Both the position numbers and the translations under genes were made by a program. A stretch of DNA of 64,000 bases, taken from Planctomycetota bacterium. Its GTDB lineage: Bacteria > Planctomycetota > UBA11346. Shown here in pieces: positions 1 to 7,439 of the stretch. Position 1 is the first letter of the stretch; each line of letters opens with the position of its first letter. The notes under the pieces are model-generated. The model saw only the letters and a list, made by a program, of their open reading frames with translations. It was not told where the DNA came from and ran no database searches. The stretch is from NCBI GenBank assembly GCA_013816485.1, contig JACDEI010000021.1, positions 3,802 through 67,801 of the forward strand, given 5' to 3'.

Positions 1-1
1 C

Positions 2-3000
2 GACATCCTTGAGGTGCCGCTGTCACTGATCGTCGACCAGTTCGTCGACACCGTGCGTTCGTGGCAGGATGCCGACCTCGATGTCGCGGGTGAGTTCATC
101 CTGATGGCGGCCACGCTGCTGGAGTTCAAGGCCCGCACCATCGCACCACCGCTCGAAGTTGCGGAGGAAGGGGCCGAGGACGAGCCGATGTTCGACCCGC
201 GCGAGTCGCTGCTGCGCTCGCTGCTGGCCTACCGGCGTTTCAAGGAGGCGGCGCAAGGCCTCGGCGACCTGGAGGTGGCGCGCCGGCCGCTGCTCGAACG
301 CCAGTTCCGCGAACACGTCCCCGAAGCCCCGCCGGAGGACAGCGACATCGATCTGGGCGAGATCGACCTCAGCCTGCTCGCCACCACCTGCGAACGCATC
401 CTCTCACGCATCGGCGGTCTCGCTCCACGCACCGTGATGGCCGATGAGATGCCGCTGGGGGTACGCATCGTCACCATGCTCGACGAGTTGGCGGTGCGTG
501 AACGCACGACCATCCGCGAACTCCTGAGCGGCAACACCTCGCGCGTGGTGCACATCACCACGGTGATGGCCACGCTCGAACTCGCACGCCAACGTTTCGT
601 CGAGGTCGACCAACCAGAACAGTTCGGTGACATCGCGCTGCGCCTGCGTGCCGCCGAGGAACGCGAACGTGAACCACACTTGCCGCCCCCTGAACCCGAC
701 GGAGCGAAACGCCGGCGTAAGCTGCCACTGGTGACCTTCACCGCGCCAGCATCGCCTGGCGCTTCGCCCAGCGATGACGAGGGCGTCGACGAAGCGCCGG
801 AGGAACCGCACGAGACCGACGAGCAGCGTTTTCTGCGTGACTTGGAGGAGGCCACCCGCGTCAGCGCGGTGCTGGCGATCACCGCCAACGTCGAGGCGAG
901 TTTCACCGCGCACTGGTATACGCTGCATCCCGAATTGAAGCCGGTCGCAGCTCCGCCGTCACCTGCACCCGAGCCGGTGGTAAAGCGGTTCCCGCCGCGG
1001 CGCACCACACCACCCGCAGTGGCACCGGCGAACGAGGTGCCCGCGGCACCCGTGACGGAATCCCCAGCGACGACCACCGAGGACGCCGTTTCAGTCGTAG
1101 CGGTCGACAGCGCGCCGGCTGAGGCTGAGGTCATACCGGCCGCGATCGCAGCAGCAGACGCCGAAACGTCGGTGATTGCCGAGTCTCCTGCGGTCTTCGT
1201 ATCTGTCGTCGACACGCTGCCTCCCGCACCGGAACCAATCGCAGAGCGTGCGCAGCCGGTGGAATCGCCGACGGCGGAACCGTCTGCCGACGTACCGTCC
1301 GCCGCTCCCGCGCAGTCGCCGGCCAGCGAAACGCCTACCGTCACGACCACGAACGAAGCGCCTGTCGTTCCTGCGCAACACGTGCTCCCGGTCGAGGAAT
1401 GGCCGGTGATGCATGCGATGCCCGCAGCGGAAGAAGCGCCACATCCGCTCGACACCATCGCCAGCGACGATCCGGCGGCGGTCAACGCCCTGCTGAGTGG
1501 TCAGGCACCACGTGCGGGCCAGAACATCGACGACGAGGAAGAAGAGGAAGAAGAGGAAGAAGAAGATGAGATCGATCCCGACGAACTCCTCGGCGACGAT
1601 CCGGCACTGGTGAACGCCGCGATCCAGGCTGACCGTCAGCGTCCGCCGGTCGAACCCCGGGCGGTGTCGGAGATCACCATCCCAACGGCGACCGAGACCT
1701 CGGTCTGGACCGCACCGTTTGATCGCGGGCAGACCGTCGCGGATGTCGATGACGACGTGGTCACGCCGTCGAGTGAGCAATCCGCGCCGGTAGTCGCCGA
1801 CGGGCCTGATGTTGTTGTGGCTGCGTCGGCGGTCAGTGAGCCGCCAACGGCTGCATCGGTCACAGCGGAAGTGGTTGCGCCGTCACTCAACGTGGAAGCA
1901 GTTGCGCCCGCTGCTGTCCATCTCGTCGAACCGACGCCCACCACCGCGCCGTTGATCCTGCCAGCAGCGGCCGCTGTTCCCGCTGCCGTGCCAGGGTTGA
2001 CGCAGATCGACGATGACCTGGAACCGGATGACCAGGACGACCGTGCGGAAGGGCTGAACGCGAACGATCCGGCACTGGTTGATGCTGCGCATCAGGCGGA
2101 CACGCCACGTGCCTCCATTAATTTGCATCCAGTTCACGACCTCACCATTCCGACCGCGACCGAAACCACGGTGTGGACTGCACCGGTTGATCGCGGGCAG
2201 ACGGCGGCGGAGGTCGACGAGGAGGCCGACGAGGCGGCCGACGAGGAGATTGAAAAAGAGGCCGAGCTGCCTGCGGAAGTCGCGACGCACAACGCGCTGG
2301 ACGTGGCCGAGGTCACCGCGGCGAGTGCGCCCATCACCCCGCCGGTAGCCGAGGCGATCTTTGTTATCGTAGCACCGGAGGTCGCGGTTCCCGCGTCGAC
2401 GTCTGCAGTCAGCGTCCCGTCCTTCAGTGATCCCACACCCACCACCGCACCGCTGGTCCTGCCAGAACGCGTGGCGGAAACCGCCATGGCGATCGTGCCG
2501 GTCACGGTGGAGATCGTGACCTCCGCGCCGGTGGTGACACCGGTCGCACCGGTCGAGGACCACGCCGTCGCCGAGGATCCACCACCGCCGGAAGACGGAC
2601 CACCACCGGCAGCTCCACCCGTGCCGCCGCCCGTGCCGCCGCCCGTGCCGCCGCCACCGCGCTCCGAATCACCGCTCCCCGCACCCACCACCACCCCGAT
2701 CACCAACCGCCCAATGTCCCCACCACCCCGTTCCAAAGCCTGGCTGCTGCTCGCGATTTTCATCGCGAGCAATGCCATCTGGGCTGGCGTGACGTGGTTG
2801 ACCTGGGTGCCACGCGATGTGCTCGAAGTCGCAGTCACCGAACGCGGCGGCACGACCGAGCACCCCACGCTGGTGTGGCGTTTCAACCTCGATGTGGTCG
2901 ATGCCGAGCGTCAGGCCAGACCGCCGGAACTGGTGCCGCACCTCACGCCGCCACTGCCTGGACGTTGGTCGTGGAGTGGACCACGCACGCTGGTGTTCGA

Positions 3001-4393
3001 AGCCGCAAGTCCGCTGCCACTCGCCACCACCTTCACCGCCACCTTACCGATGGAAGAGTTCCGCACAGTGCAGGGTTTCCGTCTACATGCCCCTGGGGCC
3101 CAGACGTGGAGCACGCCAGCCTTAGCGATCTCCGGCGCAGCGGTCGAAACCTTCGATCGTGATGGCACCACCATCGCGCTGACCTTCAATCAACCGGTCG
3201 ATCCGCTCGCCATCGCGCAGGAGTTGTCGGTCGAGATCATTCCCGCTGAAGTCTCGCTAGTGGTCACTCCATCCGCGGACGCGTCCGCAGTCGCCGTTGT
3301 GCCAACGACGGCGGTCAGCAGCGAACCAGTGGTGAGCACCGACCAGCCAGCAGCTAGCGGTGAATCAGCCAACGGTTTGCCAGCGATCATTACCGACTCG
3401 GCAGTCGCCAGTGACCAGCAGCCCAACGAGTCCGCCGTCAGCAACGACCAGCCAGTCGCCACACCAGTCACCAAGCCAGTCACCACACCAGTCACCAAGC
3501 CAGTCACCACACCAGTCACCAAGCCAGCCGTGGTCCGCGCCATCACCACCGGTTCGGCCACAACGATACGACTGTTGCTCGCTGCGCCCGTGCGTGGCAG
3601 TGCGATGTTACGTCTGCCCGCTGGCACGATTGGCGTCGCCGGTCCGCTCGGGTTGGATAAGGCTTGGGAACAACGCGTGCCGCTGCAACAGACCTTGCAC
3701 CTGACCCAGGGCGAGGTGGTGGTGCCGAGTCACGGCGATGTACGCGTCGACGTGGCGGTGAGCGATCCCGCCGCGCCGCGTGAACTGCTCGCGCCGGTGG
3801 TGAGCGTCGATCCGGCAGTGCCAGTGACCGTCAGCACGACTGATACCGGCTTATCGTTGGTTGGAGCCTTCGTGCCCGGCCAAAGCTACCGCATCGCCAT
3901 TGCCGCCACGTGGCCGGATGAGCCGAGCACCAGCGGCCATGTGCTCACAGCCTACACCGCCGCCAGCACGGTCAGCATCACCATCCCGGAGCGTCCAGCG
4001 GGTATCTGGCCGGTGGAGAACGAAGTGATCGATGGCACTCAGCGTCTGGCGGCGCACGCCGTGCCACGCGCGGATGTGATGCTGCTCACCGGCAGCGATG
4101 ATGAGTGTGTCGCCAGTCGCGAGATCACCTGGACCAGCCCTGGCGATGCGCCGGCGTTGCTCGATCTCGATGACCTGACGCAGGATCAACCGGCGGCGCA
4201 GTACCGACTGCGGGTCACCAGCGGTGGTGAGATGCCCGTCACCAGTGATCAGTCGCTGGTGATCGAAAATCTGCACGTCCGTCCGCAGGCGCTGTTCGCC
4301 GCGCTCAGCGACTGGGCGCTCGCCGCCCTCGCCGGCAACGAAGCGGCTGATGTGCCGGTGCGCATGGTGCGCATGGCCAGCGCCAGTCGTTAG
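2..4393 (+). CDS. scpA: ScpA (SMC kleisin) N-terminal domain fused to a long Pro/Ala/Glu/Thr-rich linker, a TM helix and alpha-2-macroglobulin-like Ig domains; 5' end outside window
   Basis: DILEVPLSLIVDQF...AGEFILMAATLLEFKAR...DPRESLLRSLLAYRRFKEAA and VMATLELARQRFVEVDQPEQFGDI match ScpA; frame is open from base 2; hydrophobic WLLLAIFIASNAIWAGVTWLTW at about 2741-2806; PPLPGRWSWSGPRTLVF resembles bacterial A2M N-terminal domains. Confidence 0.8.
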   Translation, partial: DILEVPLSLIVDQFVDTVRSWQDADLDVAGEFILMAATLLEFKARTIAPPLEVAEEGAEDEPMFDPRESLLRSLLAYRRFKEAAQGLGDLEVARRPLLERQFREHVPEAPPEDSDIDLGEIDLSLLATTCERILSRIGGLAPRTVMADEMPLGVRIVTMLDELAVRERTTIRELLSGNTSRVVHITTVMATLELARQRFVEVDQPEQFGDIALRLRAAEEREREPHLPPPEPDGAKRRRKLPLVTFTAPASPGASPSDDEGVDEAPEEPHETDEQRFLRDLEEATRVSAVLAITANVEASFTAHWYTLHPELKPVAAPPSPAPEPVVKRFPPRRTTPPAVAPANEVPAAPVTESPATTTEDAVSVVAVDSAPAEAEVIPAAIAAADAETSVIAESPAVFVSVVDTLPPAPEPIAERAQPVESPTAEPSADVPSAAPAQSPASETPTVTTTNEAPVVPAQHVLPVEEWPVMHAMPAAEEAPHPLDTIASDDPAAVNALLSGQAPRAGQNIDDEEEEEEEEEEDEIDPDELLGDDPALVNAAIQADRQRPPVEPRAVSEITIPTATETSVWTAPFDRGQTVADVDDDVVTPSSEQSAPVVADGPDVVVAASAVSEPPTAASVTAEVVAPSLNVEAVAPAAVHLVEPTPTTAPLILPAAAAVPAAVPGLTQIDDDLEPDDQDDRAEGLNANDPALVDAAHQADTPRASINLHPVHDLTIPTATETTVWTAPVDRGQTAAEVDEEADEAADEEIEKEAELPAEVATHNALDVAEVTAASAPITPPVAEAIFVIVAPEVAVPASTSAVSVPSFSDPTPTTAPLVLPERVAETAMAIVPVTVEIVTSAPVVTPVAPVEDHAVAEDPPPPEDGPPPAAPPVPPPVPPPVPPPPRSESPLPAPTTTPITNRPMSPPPRSKAWLLLAIFIASNAIWAGVTWLTWVPRDVLEVAVTERGGTTEHPTLVWRFNLDVVDAERQARPPELVPHLTPPLPGRWSWSGPRTLVFEAASPLPLATTFTATLPMEEFRTVQGFRLHAPGAQTWSTPALAISGAAVETFDRDGTTIALTFNQPVDPLAIAQELSVEIIPAEVSLVVTPSADASAVAVVPTTAVSSEPVVSTDQPAASGESANGLPAIITDSAVASDQQPNESAVSNDQPVATPVTKPVTTPVTKPVTTPVTKPAVVRAITTGSATTIRLLLAAPVRGSAMLRLPAGTIGVAGPLGLDKAWEQRVPLQQTLHLTQGEVVVPSHGDVRVDVAVSDPAAPRELLAPVVSVDPAVPVTVSTTDTGLSLVGAFVPGQSYRIAIAATWPDEPSTSGHVLTAYTAASTVSITIPERPAGIWPVENEVIDGTQRLAAHAVPRADVMLLTGSDDECVASREITWTSPGDAPALLDLDDLTQDQPAAQYRLRVTSGGEMPVTSDQSLVIENLHVRPQALFAALSDWALAALAGNEAADVPVRMVRMASASR
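3452..3528 (+). repeat. In-frame 24-bp tandem repeat (PVTKPVTT, about 3 copies)
   Basis: ccagtcaccaagccagtcaccaca repeated. Confidence 0.9.
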
Positions 4394-5430
4394 ATGGTTT
4401 TTTTCGGCTTCCGCGGTCCCGCCGACCCGGTCGGCAAGGGCACCAGATCCGCGCCAGCGATCTCGCCGCGCGCGATCTGGAAATGTCCCAGCGCCGCGAC
4501 CATAGCCGCGTTGTCAGCGCAGTGTTTCGTTGCCGGCAGGTAGAGTTCGAGGCCGGCCATCGCCGCGTCGCGTGCGACCCGCGCCCGCAGGGCACGGTTG
4601 CACGCCACCCCACCGCCGACCGCGATCGCGCGCACGCCACGTTGGCGCGCGGCGAGCAGCAGCTTGGTCGCGAGGCAGTCGACCACCGCGGTCTGGAACG
4701 CCGCGCACGCATCGTCGATGCCACGTGCATCGAGCCGCAGGGGATCCTTGCCCAGCGGCCCACGTGCCTGGTAGAGCAGCGCGGTCTTGATGCCGGCGAA
4801 GCTTAGGCGCAGCGTGTCATCATTCAGGAAGCTGCGCGGCAACGTCATCGCAGCGGCATTGCCACGAGCCGCGCGTGCGTCGATCTGCGGCCCGCCGGGA
4901 TAACCAAGCCCGAGGGTTGCCGCCGCCTTGTCGAAGGCCTCGCCCGCCGCGTCGTCGATGGTGCCGCCGATCGGCTGGAAACGGCCGGGGGCCTCGCCTA
5001 GGTAGAAATGACTGTGCCCGCCCGATGCCACCAGACCTACCAGCGGATACATCACCGCCGCGCGGTCGAGGTGGATCGCCGCGAGGTGTGCCTGGATGTG
5101 ATCGACCGCGGCGAGCGGCAGGCCGCGCCGTTGCGCGATGACCTTGGCCGCGGTGACCCCGGTCAGCAGGCTGCCGATGAGTCCCGGCCACGCACCCACC
5201 GCCACGCCACCGAGCGCATCGAGCGTGACGCCGGCCTGGATGAGCACCCGTTCGATCAGCCCGGGCAGCGAGGCGACGTGTCCGCGTGCAGCCAGTTCCG
5301 GCACCACACCGCCCCAGGCGGCGAAATCGTCGGCCTGCGAAGCGATGACCTCGGCGAGCACGGTGGTGCCGTCGCGCACCAGGGCGACCGCGGTCTCATC
5401 GCAACTGCTTTCGATACCGAGCACCAGCAT
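4390..5430 (-). CDS. tsaD: tRNA N6-adenosine threonylcarbamoyltransferase TsaD
   Basis: MLVLGIESSCDETA, GGVVPELAARGH, HIQAH, SGGHS, DDAAGEAFDK, GGVACN and DNAAMVA motifs; start reassigned to ATG 5430. Confidence 0.97.
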   Translation of the reverse strand: MLVLGIESSCDETAVALVRDGTTVLAEVIASQADDFAAWGGVVPELAARGHVASLPGLIERVLIQAGVTLDALGGVAVGAWPGLIGSLLTGVTAAKVIAQRRGLPLAAVDHIQAHLAAIHLDRAAVMYPLVGLVASGGHSHFYLGEAPGRFQPIGGTIDDAAGEAFDKAAATLGLGYPGGPQIDARAARGNAAAMTLPRSFLNDDTLRLSFAGIKTALLYQARGPLGKDPLRLDARGIDDACAAFQTAVVDCLATKLLLAARQRGVRAIAVGGGVACNRALRARVARDAAMAGLELYLPATKHCADNAAMVAALGHFQIARGEIAGADLVPLPTGSAGPRKPKKTI

Positions 5431-5640
5431 GGGCCGGCAGCGTGCGGTGGGGCCCGGTCTGACAAGCCATGTCCTGCGTGCCACGCGCCTGGGCGAGGAA
5501 CCCTGGACATAGCGGGCGAGCCGACGCTCCCAGCCTTGCGGCTGAGTGGTCGTTGGGGTACGTTCCAGTGCGACCACGGGGGCCCGCGTCATGAGCATCG
5601 GTAGTACGGTCGACAACCTTCCGGCATCCAGCGTTGCACC

Positions 5641-6579
5641 GTGCCCAGGGCTTCTGGGCGTGAGCGGCAGGCAGATCCAGTGAATCCCGTGCCCGGCGAT
5701 CCGCTACCCGACCAGCCGGCAACGGGCGCGCCCGGCTCGATCAGCGAGTTGTTGGCCGCCGCAACTTCGCCCGCAACTTCGTCCGCAGCCTTCGATGCCG
5801 GCTTCATCCACCGCGAACGCATGGCCGGCCTGGGTGAACTGACCGCCGGCATCGCCCACGAACTGAACAACCCCATCGGTTACATCGGTAGCAATCTCAA
5901 CACCCTGCGGCGTTACGTCGAAACGGTGTCGGCGCTCATGGCGCAGGCCCAGGCGTTCATGGAGCCAGCGCAACGCGGCGCCTGGGAACAGGCGCTGGAC
6001 GCCGCGCGTTGGCCGATCATCGGCAAGGATCTGGTGGCGGTGGTCGATGAGACGCAGCAGGGCGCCGAACAGGTGAGGAACATCGTCGGCGATCTCAAAC
6101 TGCTGGCGCGTACCTCGATCACGCCAGAGCAGGGTAGCGTCGATCAGTGCGTGTTGTCGGCGCTCACGGTGTTGACGCACCAACTCAAACACCGCTGTCA
6201 CGTCGAACGCGATCTCGCCAGTCGCGACGGTCTGCTGCTGGTGCGCCCGCAGATCATCCAACTGGTGATCAACCTGGTGCACAACGCGGGGCAGGCGGTG
6301 GCGTCCGGCGGACATGTTCGTCTGACCAGCCGCAGCCAGGAGAGTCTGGTGACACTCACCATCGAGGACGACGGGCCAGGGGTCCCCGAACATCAGCGGC
6401 TGGAGATCTTCCAGCCGTTCTACACCAGCAAGAAAGGTGGCACCGGACTGGGATTGCCGATCGTCGCGCGCATTGCGCGCAACCACGGCGGCGATGTGCG
6501 GATCGACCGCAGCCCCGACCTGGGTGGTGCGCGTTTCATCGTCGAATTGCGGCACTGGCAAGGAGCGGGAGTCGCGTGA
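5641..6579 (+). CDS. Cytoplasmic histidine kinase (HisKA + HATPase_c) with no sensor or TM domain
   Basis: AGIAHELNNP H-box, NLVHNA N-box, DDGPG, FYTSK, GTGLGL; start uncertain (5641 or 5680). Confidence 0.92.
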   Translation: MPRASGRERQADPVNPVPGDPLPDQPATGAPGSISELLAAATSPATSSAAFDAGFIHRERMAGLGELTAGIAHELNNPIGYIGSNLNTLRRYVETVSALMAQAQAFMEPAQRGAWEQALDAARWPIIGKDLVAVVDETQQGAEQVRNIVGDLKLLARTSITPEQGSVDQCVLSALTVLTHQLKHRCHVERDLASRDGLLLVRPQIIQLVINLVHNAGQAVASGGHVRLTSRSQESLVTLTIEDDGPGVPEHQRLEIFQPFYTSKKGGTGLGLPIVARIARNHGGDVRIDRSPDLGGARFIVELRHWQGAGVA

Positions 6580-7439
6580 CGGACCCGCGCGTGCGCATCC
6601 TGATGGTGGATGATGAATCGCCGATCCTGCGCTCGCTCGCACGGTTGTTCGCCTTCGAGCCGTGGGAGCTGGTAAGCGCGACCAGCGCGGCCGAAGCCCG
6701 AACGCTGCTCGGCGAAGGTGGGATTTCAGTGATCCTCAGCGATTACGCCCTGGCCTACGACGACGGGGTCGAACTGCTGCGCACGGCCAGTCAGCTCAGC
6801 CCGGACACCAGCCGCATCCTCTTCAGCGGTCACATCGACATCGATCTGCTACGCCGTGCGGTCAACAGCGGCGAGGTCTACCGCTTCCTGACCAAGCCGT
6901 GGAGTGATGACGAACTGCTGCAAGCCGTGCGTCAGGGCGTCGAGCGCTGGAACCTGTTGCAGCACAACCGGGTGCTCATCGAACACGCCGAGGAACACCA
7001 CCGTCAGCTCAGCCGCTTCAATGCCGACCTCGAACGCCTGGTGGGTGAACGCACCGCCCTGCTCGAACTGCGCAACCGCACCCTCGGTCTGAGCCAGGCG
7101 GTACTCGACGGTCTGCCGGTGGCGGTGGTCGGTGTCGCGGCTGATGGCACGGTGGTGTTGGCCAACGAACTGGCACGTCGGATCTTCCCAGAGCAGTTTT
7201 CCGGGACGCAATCGCCATCGTCGAACACGCCGGCACCGTGGTGGGAATGGTCGCGTGAAGCGCTCGCCCACGGCAACGCGCTGGTGGTCGACGGTTCACT
7301 CGGACAGTTCCGCATCGAGGTCATGGCACTTGGTGAACGCGGCATGGTGATGACGGTGATCCCGCTTGGCACGATGCCGGGCGCGCCGTCCAGCACTCCG
7401 CTCGACCGCGATCACGCCCCGCACGGAAGCGCCACGTGA
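6576..7439 (+). CDS. Response regulator: REC + coiled coil + degenerate PAS-like domain
   Basis: ILMVDDE, ILSDY, FLTKPW; GTGA overlap with the upstream stop; LPVAVVGVAADGTVVLAN is a PAS-like start. Confidence 0.88.
   Translation: MTDPRVRILMVDDESPILRSLARLFAFEPWELVSATSAAEARTLLGEGGISVILSDYALAYDDGVELLRTASQLSPDTSRILFSGHIDIDLLRRAVNSGEVYRFLTKPWSDDELLQAVRQGVERWNLLQHNRVLIEHAEEHHRQLSRFNADLERLVGERTALLELRNRTLGLSQAVLDGLPVAVVGVAADGTVVLANELARRIFPEQFSGTQSPSSNTPAPWWEWSREALAHGNALVVDGSLGQFRIEVMALGERGMVMTVIPLGTMPGAPSSTPLDRDHAPHGSAT

Follow-up and report, generated by a model that had tools for sequence, protein, structure and literature searches.

A long planctomycetal ScpA with an acidic linker, a transmembrane helix and alpha-2-macroglobulin-related domains: a candidate membrane-tethered kleisin

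Introduction

Bacterial SMC-ScpAB is regarded as a soluble complex, which is loaded onto DNA at ParB/parS and then moves along it, and ScpA, its kleisin subunit, is a small protein, e.g. about 250 amino acids (aa) in Bacillus subtilis. In FtsK and SpoIIIE, a DNA-handling module is held at the membrane by transmembrane (TM) segments via a long, low-complexity, Pro-rich linker, and RacA-DivIVA and PopZ-ParB serve as chromosome anchors to the membrane or the pole. Alpha-2-macroglobulins (A2Ms) carry the thioester motif CxEQ, and the textbook A2M of Escherichia coli is anchored by a lipobox. Here, we describe a gene at the 5' end of a 64,000-nucleotide stretch of DNA from a Planctomycetota bacterium (assembly GCA_013816485.1, contig JACDEI010000021.1, positions 3,802-67,801; the whole stretch is hereafter called the window). 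Its product is not the usual small soluble ScpA of about 250 aa but comprises 1537 aa and includes one TM helix; its domains are known ones, in a combination that alters the possible location of the complex.

Compared with the canonical ScpA of SMC-ScpAB, the long ScpA retains a full-length match to PF02616, the N-terminal helical domain and the winged helix, and its genome also encodes SMC, ScpB and ParB, whereas about 1250 residues (an extension, a tether, a TM helix and periplasmic domains) are added after the winged helix. The design logic is like that of FtsK and SpoIIIE without homology. However, the TM part of FtsK is N-terminal, with the motor in the same chain and without a periplasmic Ig-like array, whereas the anchor of the long ScpA is C-terminal and would leash a subunit of a separate ATPase complex. 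RicO of Staphylococcus aureus is reported to be a DNA-binding protein that sits at the membrane by an amphipathic helix and acts in parallel to SMC (10.64898/2026.03.06.710092). The outcome proposed here, a chromosome-organizing apparatus bridged to the cell periphery, resembles those of RicO, RacA-DivIVA and PopZ-ParB, but these contact the membrane peripherally or via partners, whereas an integral membrane kleisin with periplasmic domains is proposed here. No description of a membrane-anchored ScpA or kleisin was found in a full-text literature search of mainly open-access papers, and ScpA, SMC and condensin are not mentioned in the main text of a 2025 review of the phylum.

Architecture of the long ScpA

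The window corresponds to C69:3802-67801 of our comparison set, in which genomes, contigs, loci and proteins are labelled G, C, L and P, respectively, and G000 is the source genome. In the list of open reading frames (ORFs), frame 2..4393 (+) is open for 1463 codons and runs off the 5' end of the window. The complete ORF starts with an ATG at C69:3581 (window position -220), i.e. 220 bases upstream of the window, and specifies the 1537-aa product (P0002). The features of the gene are as follows (window coordinates, with the basis of each in brackets).

2..664, + strand: ScpA kleisin domain, part within the window (PF02616, 85.9 bits; AlphaFold2 (AF2) model of aa 44-402)
665..979, + strand: lineage-specific ScpA extension (alignment A4, motif table, AF2 helices)
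980..2713, + strand: polyanionic disordered linker (composition, repeats, ratio of nonsynonymous to synonymous substitution rates (dN/dS), GC content by codon position)
2714..2716, + strand: conserved in-frame ATG, Met979 (Met conservation in the A2M-like class of long ScpAs, class A)
2738..2806, + strand: single TM helix (hydropathy scans; AF2 helix at model residues 8-30)
2816..3244, + strand: periplasmic beta-sandwich domains 1-2, Big_5/Ig-like (AF2 model residues 35-177)
3254..3517, + strand: variable disordered insert with TPVTKPVT repeats (predicted local distance difference test score (pLDDT) < 50, model residues 181-268)
3530..4273, + strand: periplasmic beta-sandwich domains 3-4 (AF2 model residues 273-520)
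4283..4393, + strand: C-terminal helix and last strand (ADVPVRMVRM), with a TAA/TGA-type stop at 4391-4393 (AF2 helix 524-538, strand 549-554)

The N-terminal part is a complete ScpA, and no other family was found in the whole protein using Pfam and NCBIfam. The match to PF02616 (SMC_ScpA) reached 73.4 bits with the window part (E 3.7e-20, profile positions 8-228 of 232) and 85.9 bits with the full protein (profile positions 1-228 of 232), against a cut-off of 24.6. It ends at about window 637, consistent with the original prediction, in which the ScpA domain ended near 650. The kleisin fold is seen in the AF2 model of aa 44-402 (mean pLDDT 70.3, from an alignment of 29 sequences), which comprises an N-terminal helical domain and long middle helices (helices at model residues 18-78 and 97-168) and a C-terminal winged helix (183-252). 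The winged helix is followed by an extension of ~100 aa containing a K/R run, LPLVTF/W, an acidic stretch, and three helices (ETDEQRFLRELEE...). In the window, a disordered basic patch (KRRRK) and then LPLVTF are found at 707-739, and the three helices (ETDEQRFLRDLEE...) at 818-925 (AF2 helices at model residues 304-339). This extension, which is covered by no Pfam family, is common to all ScpAs of the family, long and short (alignment A4, 29 sequences; motif table). By contrast, in three other planctomycetal families (three of three examined), only 10-32 residues follow the winged helix of ScpA.

The disordered linker of ~580 aa (aa 401-974) has a net charge of -87 and contains 16.6% Pro and 1.4% aromatic residues, with a poly-Glu run at 1521-1575 and a Pro-rich stretch at about 2579-2659. 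A unit of ~156-167 aa is duplicated within it and includes three blocks of motifs, namely DDPALVNAA (1467-1504, 1596-1633, and 2064-2101), ITIPTATETxVWTAPxDRGQT (1674-1755 and 2142-2223), and PTPTTAPL[IV]LP (1928-1964 and 2429-2465). The motif DPAxVNAAL also occurs in the orthologs P0004-P0015, P0020, and P0042, down to about 50% identity. The conserved repeated motifs look like partner-binding sites.

The TM helix was called by hydropathy scans together with the AF2 helix, without a dedicated TM predictor, at aa 987-1009 (AWLLLAIFIASNAIWAGVTWLTW; window 2738-2806), almost exactly where it had been predicted (about 2741-2806). The segment is uncharged with a mean hydropathy of 1.9, three of the 10 preceding residues are K or R, and the net charge of the TM region is +3. 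An N-in/C-out topology is thus likely, and the C-terminal 528 aa would be periplasmic because ScpA must be cytoplasmic. These 528 aa are mostly beta in the AF2 model (16 sequences, mean pLDDT 75.7), as expected from the ~530 aa of beta-rich domains claimed earlier, and consist of beta-sandwich domains flanking the variable disordered insert. The pLDDT values are 74-94 for domains 1-2 (model residues 35-177), which match PF13205 (Big_5) in the orthologs, and 70-94 for domains 3-4 (model residues 273-520), which contain a conserved G..F.PG..Y motif. The disordered insert varies in length among orthologs. Its TPVTKPVT tandem repeat (window 3440-3500) carries a 24-nt in-frame deletion at 3459 in one independent sequencing run, indicating that the repeat number is polymorphic.

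Candidate partners and the short ScpA paralog

The source genome contains a single match to the SMC hinge (C27, within an open frame of 1319 aa), one ScpB (C82), one ParB, and two ScpAs, i.e. the long one and a short paralog of 419 aa (P0003; G000:C47:105866-107125, L006:5867-7126). The short paralog has the same post-winged-helix extension and lacks the linker and the TM helix. No Pfam family matches the next gene downstream of it (L006:7334-8152, 272 aa), and the scpB gene is located elsewhere (C82).

In four relatives, G003 (90% complete), G014 (94% complete), G012, and G017, one SMC hinge and one ScpB were found together with only the long ScpA, whether ScpA was searched for with the Pfam model or with the short paralog. 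G013 likewise has the long ScpA and ScpB, so that ScpB was found in five of five relatives with only the long ScpA and the SMC hinge in four of five. Because SMC and ScpB occur in four of these genomes with no other ScpA, the long TM-anchored form is the sole candidate kleisin there, and we infer on this ground that the long ScpA binds SMC and ScpB. We thus consider it rather likely that the long ScpA acts as a kleisin by which SMC-ScpAB is held at the inner membrane. A membrane-tethered condensin subunit had been suggested in the original prediction; this candidate role gains weight from the four relatives.

The presence of both forms in G000 and in seven other genomes of the genus leaves room for a different division of roles. 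The long ScpA might be a regulatory or diverged paralog that keeps the kleisin fold without being the structural kleisin of loop-extruding complexes; it would either act as a sink or timer by sequestering SMC or ScpB at the membrane, or serve some other envelope-linked task through its linker motifs and periplasmic domains, and the short ScpA would do the chromosomal work where it is present. The conserved repeated linker motifs (DDPALVNAA and others), with their resemblance to partner-binding sites, would suit such a role, and the short forms make up a well-supported clade of their own (see below), as expected after a division of labour. However, in G003, G014, G012, and G017, which have SMC, ScpB, and only the long ScpA, the long form must be the kleisin if the complex works. 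In addition, the ScpA core of the long form has a dN/dS of 0.18, the constraint expected of a working domain, and scores like the short one against PF02616 (85.9 versus 82.9 bits). We consider this alternative unlikely.

Reliability of the reading frame

A trivial explanation of the architecture would be an artefact: a stop codon might have been lost, the frame shifted, or the assembly chimeric, or GC-rich DNA might happen to be open in this frame, the linker being untranslated. The assembly of G000 consists of 101 contigs and is 87% complete, the GC content of about 67% favours long spurious ORFs, and many antisense ORFs overlap the region. However, the frame is free of stops between the ScpA domain and the TM segment, as the original prediction had stated, both here and in the orthologs of five other genomes, and the same architecture is found in dozens of database proteins with 30-87% identity. 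The chance of ~578 stop-free linker codons at 67% GC is roughly 2e-6 (our own estimate, from base composition only), and the codon-position pattern GC1 > GC2 < GC3, with GC2 lowest, stays in frame along the whole ORF, linker included.

Contigs from three further sequencing runs (X2, X5, and X3, from two further studies) tile window positions 1-4500 except for the poly-Glu repeat at 1521-1575. They differ from the window by 26 substitutions (11 synonymous, 15 nonsynonymous, and no stops) and two indels, +3 nt and -24 nt (run X3), both in frame. Across 650-2800, for which read mapping had been proposed, these contigs thus show neither a stop nor a frameshift, with the poly-Glu repeat uncovered. 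This run of ~14 Glu codons (GAG/GAA), at which every independent contig breaks, is the weakest point for any short-read assembly of the gene. Among the other contig joints, 123/811 came from contigs matching only short conserved stretches of ScpA, probably those of the short paralog, and 2575/2623 and 2655/2618 fall within the Pro-rich repeat of the linker. All of the listed runs with sequence were DNA, and no RNA dataset holding window 400-3200 was listed.

Compared with the G006 ortholog (Nei-Gojobori method), dN/dS is 0.18 in the ScpA core, 0.25 in the extension, 0.21 in the periplasmic domains, and 0.56 in the periplasmic disordered insert. The value for the linker is 0.30 over 548 codons (range 0.30-0.47), which indicates that the linker is translated and constrained; judged from these substitutions, it is evidently under purifying selection. 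The long ORF is a genuine single gene, and we regard an artefactual origin as highly improbable.

Internal Met979 and a possible nested product

Two genes merged by a lost stop codon had been offered as an alternative in the original prediction, with an in-frame ATG at 2714 as the putative second start. The ATG is indeed present (Met979, eight residues before the TM helix), and no Shine-Dalgarno (SD)-like motif was seen upstream of it or at the main start. A merger as an accident of this genome is rejected, and a nested second product is conceivable. All 23 class-A proteins have a Met residue within the 20 aa preceding the TM helix, at a distance of 8-14 residues from it and with diverged neighbours, although these proteins are kin, so that the count overstates their independence. 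In the same 20-residue window, Met occurs in five of 29 other TM-bearing long ScpAs, which equals the background (about 17% expected, Met accounting for 0.94% of linker residues). Stand-alone TM-anchored A2Ms start at the position equivalent to Met979 in an alignment of N-termini, and it thus seems, from these alignments, that an ancestral A2M start codon has been kept before the TM helix.

These observations would also suit a continuous ORF whose main products are separate, namely an ScpA with a long tail, which might be cleaved ahead of the TM helix, and a TM plus periplasmic protein of 559 aa read from the ATG at 2714, the link between them being incidental or serving co-expression. One database protein, P0058 (535 aa), begins exactly at the Met979 equivalent. 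However, all six module-only database hits of near length, including P0058, are on contigs of 1288-7064 nt and are fragment-like, and other-class long ScpAs also end in a TM helix without such a Met. There is no stop between the two parts in any ortholog examined, so that ribosomes starting at the ScpA ATG must make the fusion. The SD-like motif absent upstream of 2714 is a further point against internal initiation, although the main start is also without one. Taken together, we assign a low probability to separate main products.

Relationship of the periplasmic module to A2Ms

A profile built from ScpA-fused proteins only was aligned by hhalign to the N-terminus of a complete A2M with 99.6% probability (E 2.2e-24, 303 columns). 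The matched part is the first 315 residues, TM helix included, of the protein at locus L027 of G036, which is a TM-anchored A2M with Big_5, bMG2, bMG3, MG2, bMG5, bMG6, bait region, A2M, TED, and bMG10 domains. In several relatives, this module also forms the N-terminus of long proteins that are not ScpAs. The ScpA-fused proteins extend as far as the first strand of what is, in full A2Ms, the next MG domain (alignment columns 701-730). When A2M rows were included in the profile, the last domains mapped to MG0-NIE-MG1 of ECAM (4zjg, E 7.5e-5).

The long ScpA thus shares the TM anchor and the first ~3 beta-sandwich domains with bacterial A2Ms (E. coli YfhM/ECAM, the Salmonella A2M, and the planctomycetal L027), whereas bMG2, bMG3, MG2, bMG5, bMG6, and the bait, A2M, thioester, and MG10 domains, all present in L027, are lacking. 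Pfam searches with the whole protein and with the 559-aa C-terminal part found no bait-region, A2M, thioester, MG10, or MG3-MG10 domain, and neither of the only two Cys residues in the translation (TTCERIL and DDECVAS) lies in a CxEQ context. Of the claim in the original prediction that the extracytoplasmic domains are A2M-like, homology of the anchor and the first ~3 domains therefore stands, and the bait, thioester, and MG3-MG10 parts are absent. Judged by its domain content, the periplasmic module is evidently the anchor end of an A2M and not an A2M, and cannot act as a protease trap. The arrangement is a clear instance of domain capture: a cytoplasmic protein has acquired, as its membrane anchor, the anchor-bearing end of a periplasmic protease trap.

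Full-size TM-anchored A2M-type proteins (open frames of 1800-1965 aa) are encoded in several related genomes (G004:C6, G006:C8, G008:C606, G036:C175, and G038:C41). None was found in G000 with the C-terminal module as query.

Distribution and evolution of long ScpAs

A search with the last 559 aa found matches in 15 of 41 related genomes. The ScpA and the periplasmic module are encoded in one frame in G002 (1572 aa), G009 (1555 aa), G003 (1674 aa), and G014 (1679 aa, another genus), and the shared frame in G006 runs up to the contig end; the proposed search for the ScpA plus TM architecture in related genomes thus gave a positive result, complete in four genomes and partial in the fifth. In the protein collection, 53 long relatives of 845-2690 aa were identified which, where named, are 'segregation/condensation protein A' of metagenome-assembled genomes of 'Planctomycetes bacterium', an annotation that conceals the architecture. 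Using a strict TM scan, 50 of the 54 long ScpAs (the query and the 53 relatives) were positive. P0035 and P0036 have a TM helix that is not preceded by a basic residue, and a TM helix is absent only from the two distant hits, which are not planctomycete-like.

The long ScpAs were classified by the region following the TM helix. Class A, the A2M-like class, has 23 members, i.e. the query, 18 BLASTP hits, and P0048, P0049, P0051, and P0052; these last four were assigned by eye, and only P0049 (locus L030) is included in an alignment. In a second class (19 members by motif), Trp-rich repeats such as VPWDAFLP are found in place of the A2M-like domains. The remaining long ScpAs have a TM segment, except for P0055 and P0056, and no recognizable domain, and Pfam found nothing besides ScpA in six long ScpAs of the other classes. 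Membrane anchoring of ScpA, as called from the predicted TM helices, is evidently a conserved trait across the classes of long forms.

The second-class proteins (P0017-P0019, P0021-P0030, P0033, P0035, P0036, P0039, P0041, P0043, and P0068) carry 145-260 aa after the TM helix with repeated VVPWDAFLP and VPWYACLP. No Pfam match was found after the TM helix in two sampled members, P0018 and P0025.

An exhaustive search with an ScpA plus extension profile yielded 41 cluster representatives spanning the whole profile, 33 of which are at least 775 aa long and eight 389-486 aa. Among six newly seen long representatives, five have a TM helix and the sixth, which looks cut, ends inside the linker. A locus search with ScpA alignment A3 returned 80 loci, of which only the top six are close relatives, labelled 'Planctomycetota bacterium' (five) and 'uncultured Candidatus Kuenenia sp.' (one); with the 559-aa protein as locus query, 102 pattern matches were obtained, none of which is a relative.

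A maximum-likelihood tree was calculated from 31 ScpA cores. The long forms occupy its base as a paraphyletic group, within which all of the short forms constitute one nested clade (100/99) that is sister to two long forms (96/92). Because of this placement, the tree suggests that the tethered form is the older state within the family.

Proposed mode of action

If the long ScpA is a membrane-tethered kleisin, its cytoplasmic, complete ScpA domain would bridge the SMC heads and bind ScpB as usual. The winged helix would be followed by the family extension and by the acidic disordered tether of ~580 residues with its conserved short motifs, which by our own polymer estimate would have a contour length of about 200 nm and a typical reach of some 25 nm. 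One TM helix (N-in/C-out) would then lead to four Ig-like periplasmic domains taken from the anchor-proximal end of an A2M. SMC-ScpAB rings containing the long kleisin would thus be leashed to the inner membrane, and in G000 the short soluble paralog could provide a second, free pool of complexes.

Several observations weigh against this reading or parts of it. The short soluble P0003 could be the working kleisin in G000, and no SMC hinge was found in G013 (genome 78% complete). The conservation of Met979 hints that a nested, anchor-only product of 559 aa is possibly made beside the fusion. One low-depth contig of run X6 joins window positions 1087 and 3529, although one side of the joint comprises only 21 letters and joints of this kind often derive from other organisms. 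With regard to the origin of the anchor, the profile without A2M rows reached no solved A2M, only an Ig-like domain of LdtMt2 (E 1.7e-4), and Foldseek against the PDB returned generic beta-sandwich arrays (Ig/FN3-type) with TM-scores of at most 0.23; C3, 4u48, 4zjg, and 5a42 were among these matches, which fits kinship with A2Ms without being specific. Finally, the ScpA tree is rooted only through two outgroup branches of great length, and several of its basal forks lack resolution.

A more far-reaching scenario, which we regard as speculative and on the whole improbable, can be built on the tethered kleisin. In this uncultured family, the SMC complex would be built around a kleisin that is itself an integral membrane protein and holds on to the wall or outer layers with its periplasmic Ig-like domains. 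Chromosome loops would thereby be fixed in place at the envelope, the growth of which would help to separate sister chromosomes; the linker motifs would recruit a partner, and a Met979 isoform would tune the number of occupied anchoring sites. If true, this would be a molecular version of the replicon model of Jacob, Brenner, and Cuzin, in cells in which no FtsZ was found: the FtsZ C-terminal domain family (PF12327) has no match in G000 (87% complete), and ParB is present.

An integral-membrane kleisin that is kept across a family-level lineage and is the sole ScpA in several genomes would, if confirmed, amount to a condensin on a leash. It would bear on how loop extrusion copes with a fixed anchor, on chromosome placement and segregation in planctomycetes dividing without FtsZ, and on the mechanical coupling of chromosome and envelope growth.

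Gene neighbourhood

A Ser/Thr protein kinase gene lies directly upstream of the long scpA on the same strand (L005:1809-3503 in C69; PF00069, E 8.5e-57). Downstream, a convergent tsaD gene (window 4390-5616, - strand; PF00814, E 3.2e-73) shares the last 4 bases at its end with the stop region of the long ORF. The arrangement of the kinase upstream and TsaD downstream is kept only within the genus (G002, G009, and, in part, G006), and the pairing with the kinase is kept in the same three genomes. The upstream kinase was not found in the loci examined for G003 and G014, and only kinase matches of 33-36% identity lie nearby in G012 and G024. This synteny is uninformative about function; that Thr/Ser-rich linker motifs are substrates of the upstream kinase is a guess. 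Downstream of tsaD, overlapping ORFs at window 5641-7439 (+ strand) encode a histidine kinase (HATPase_c, HisKA) and a response-regulator receiver protein.

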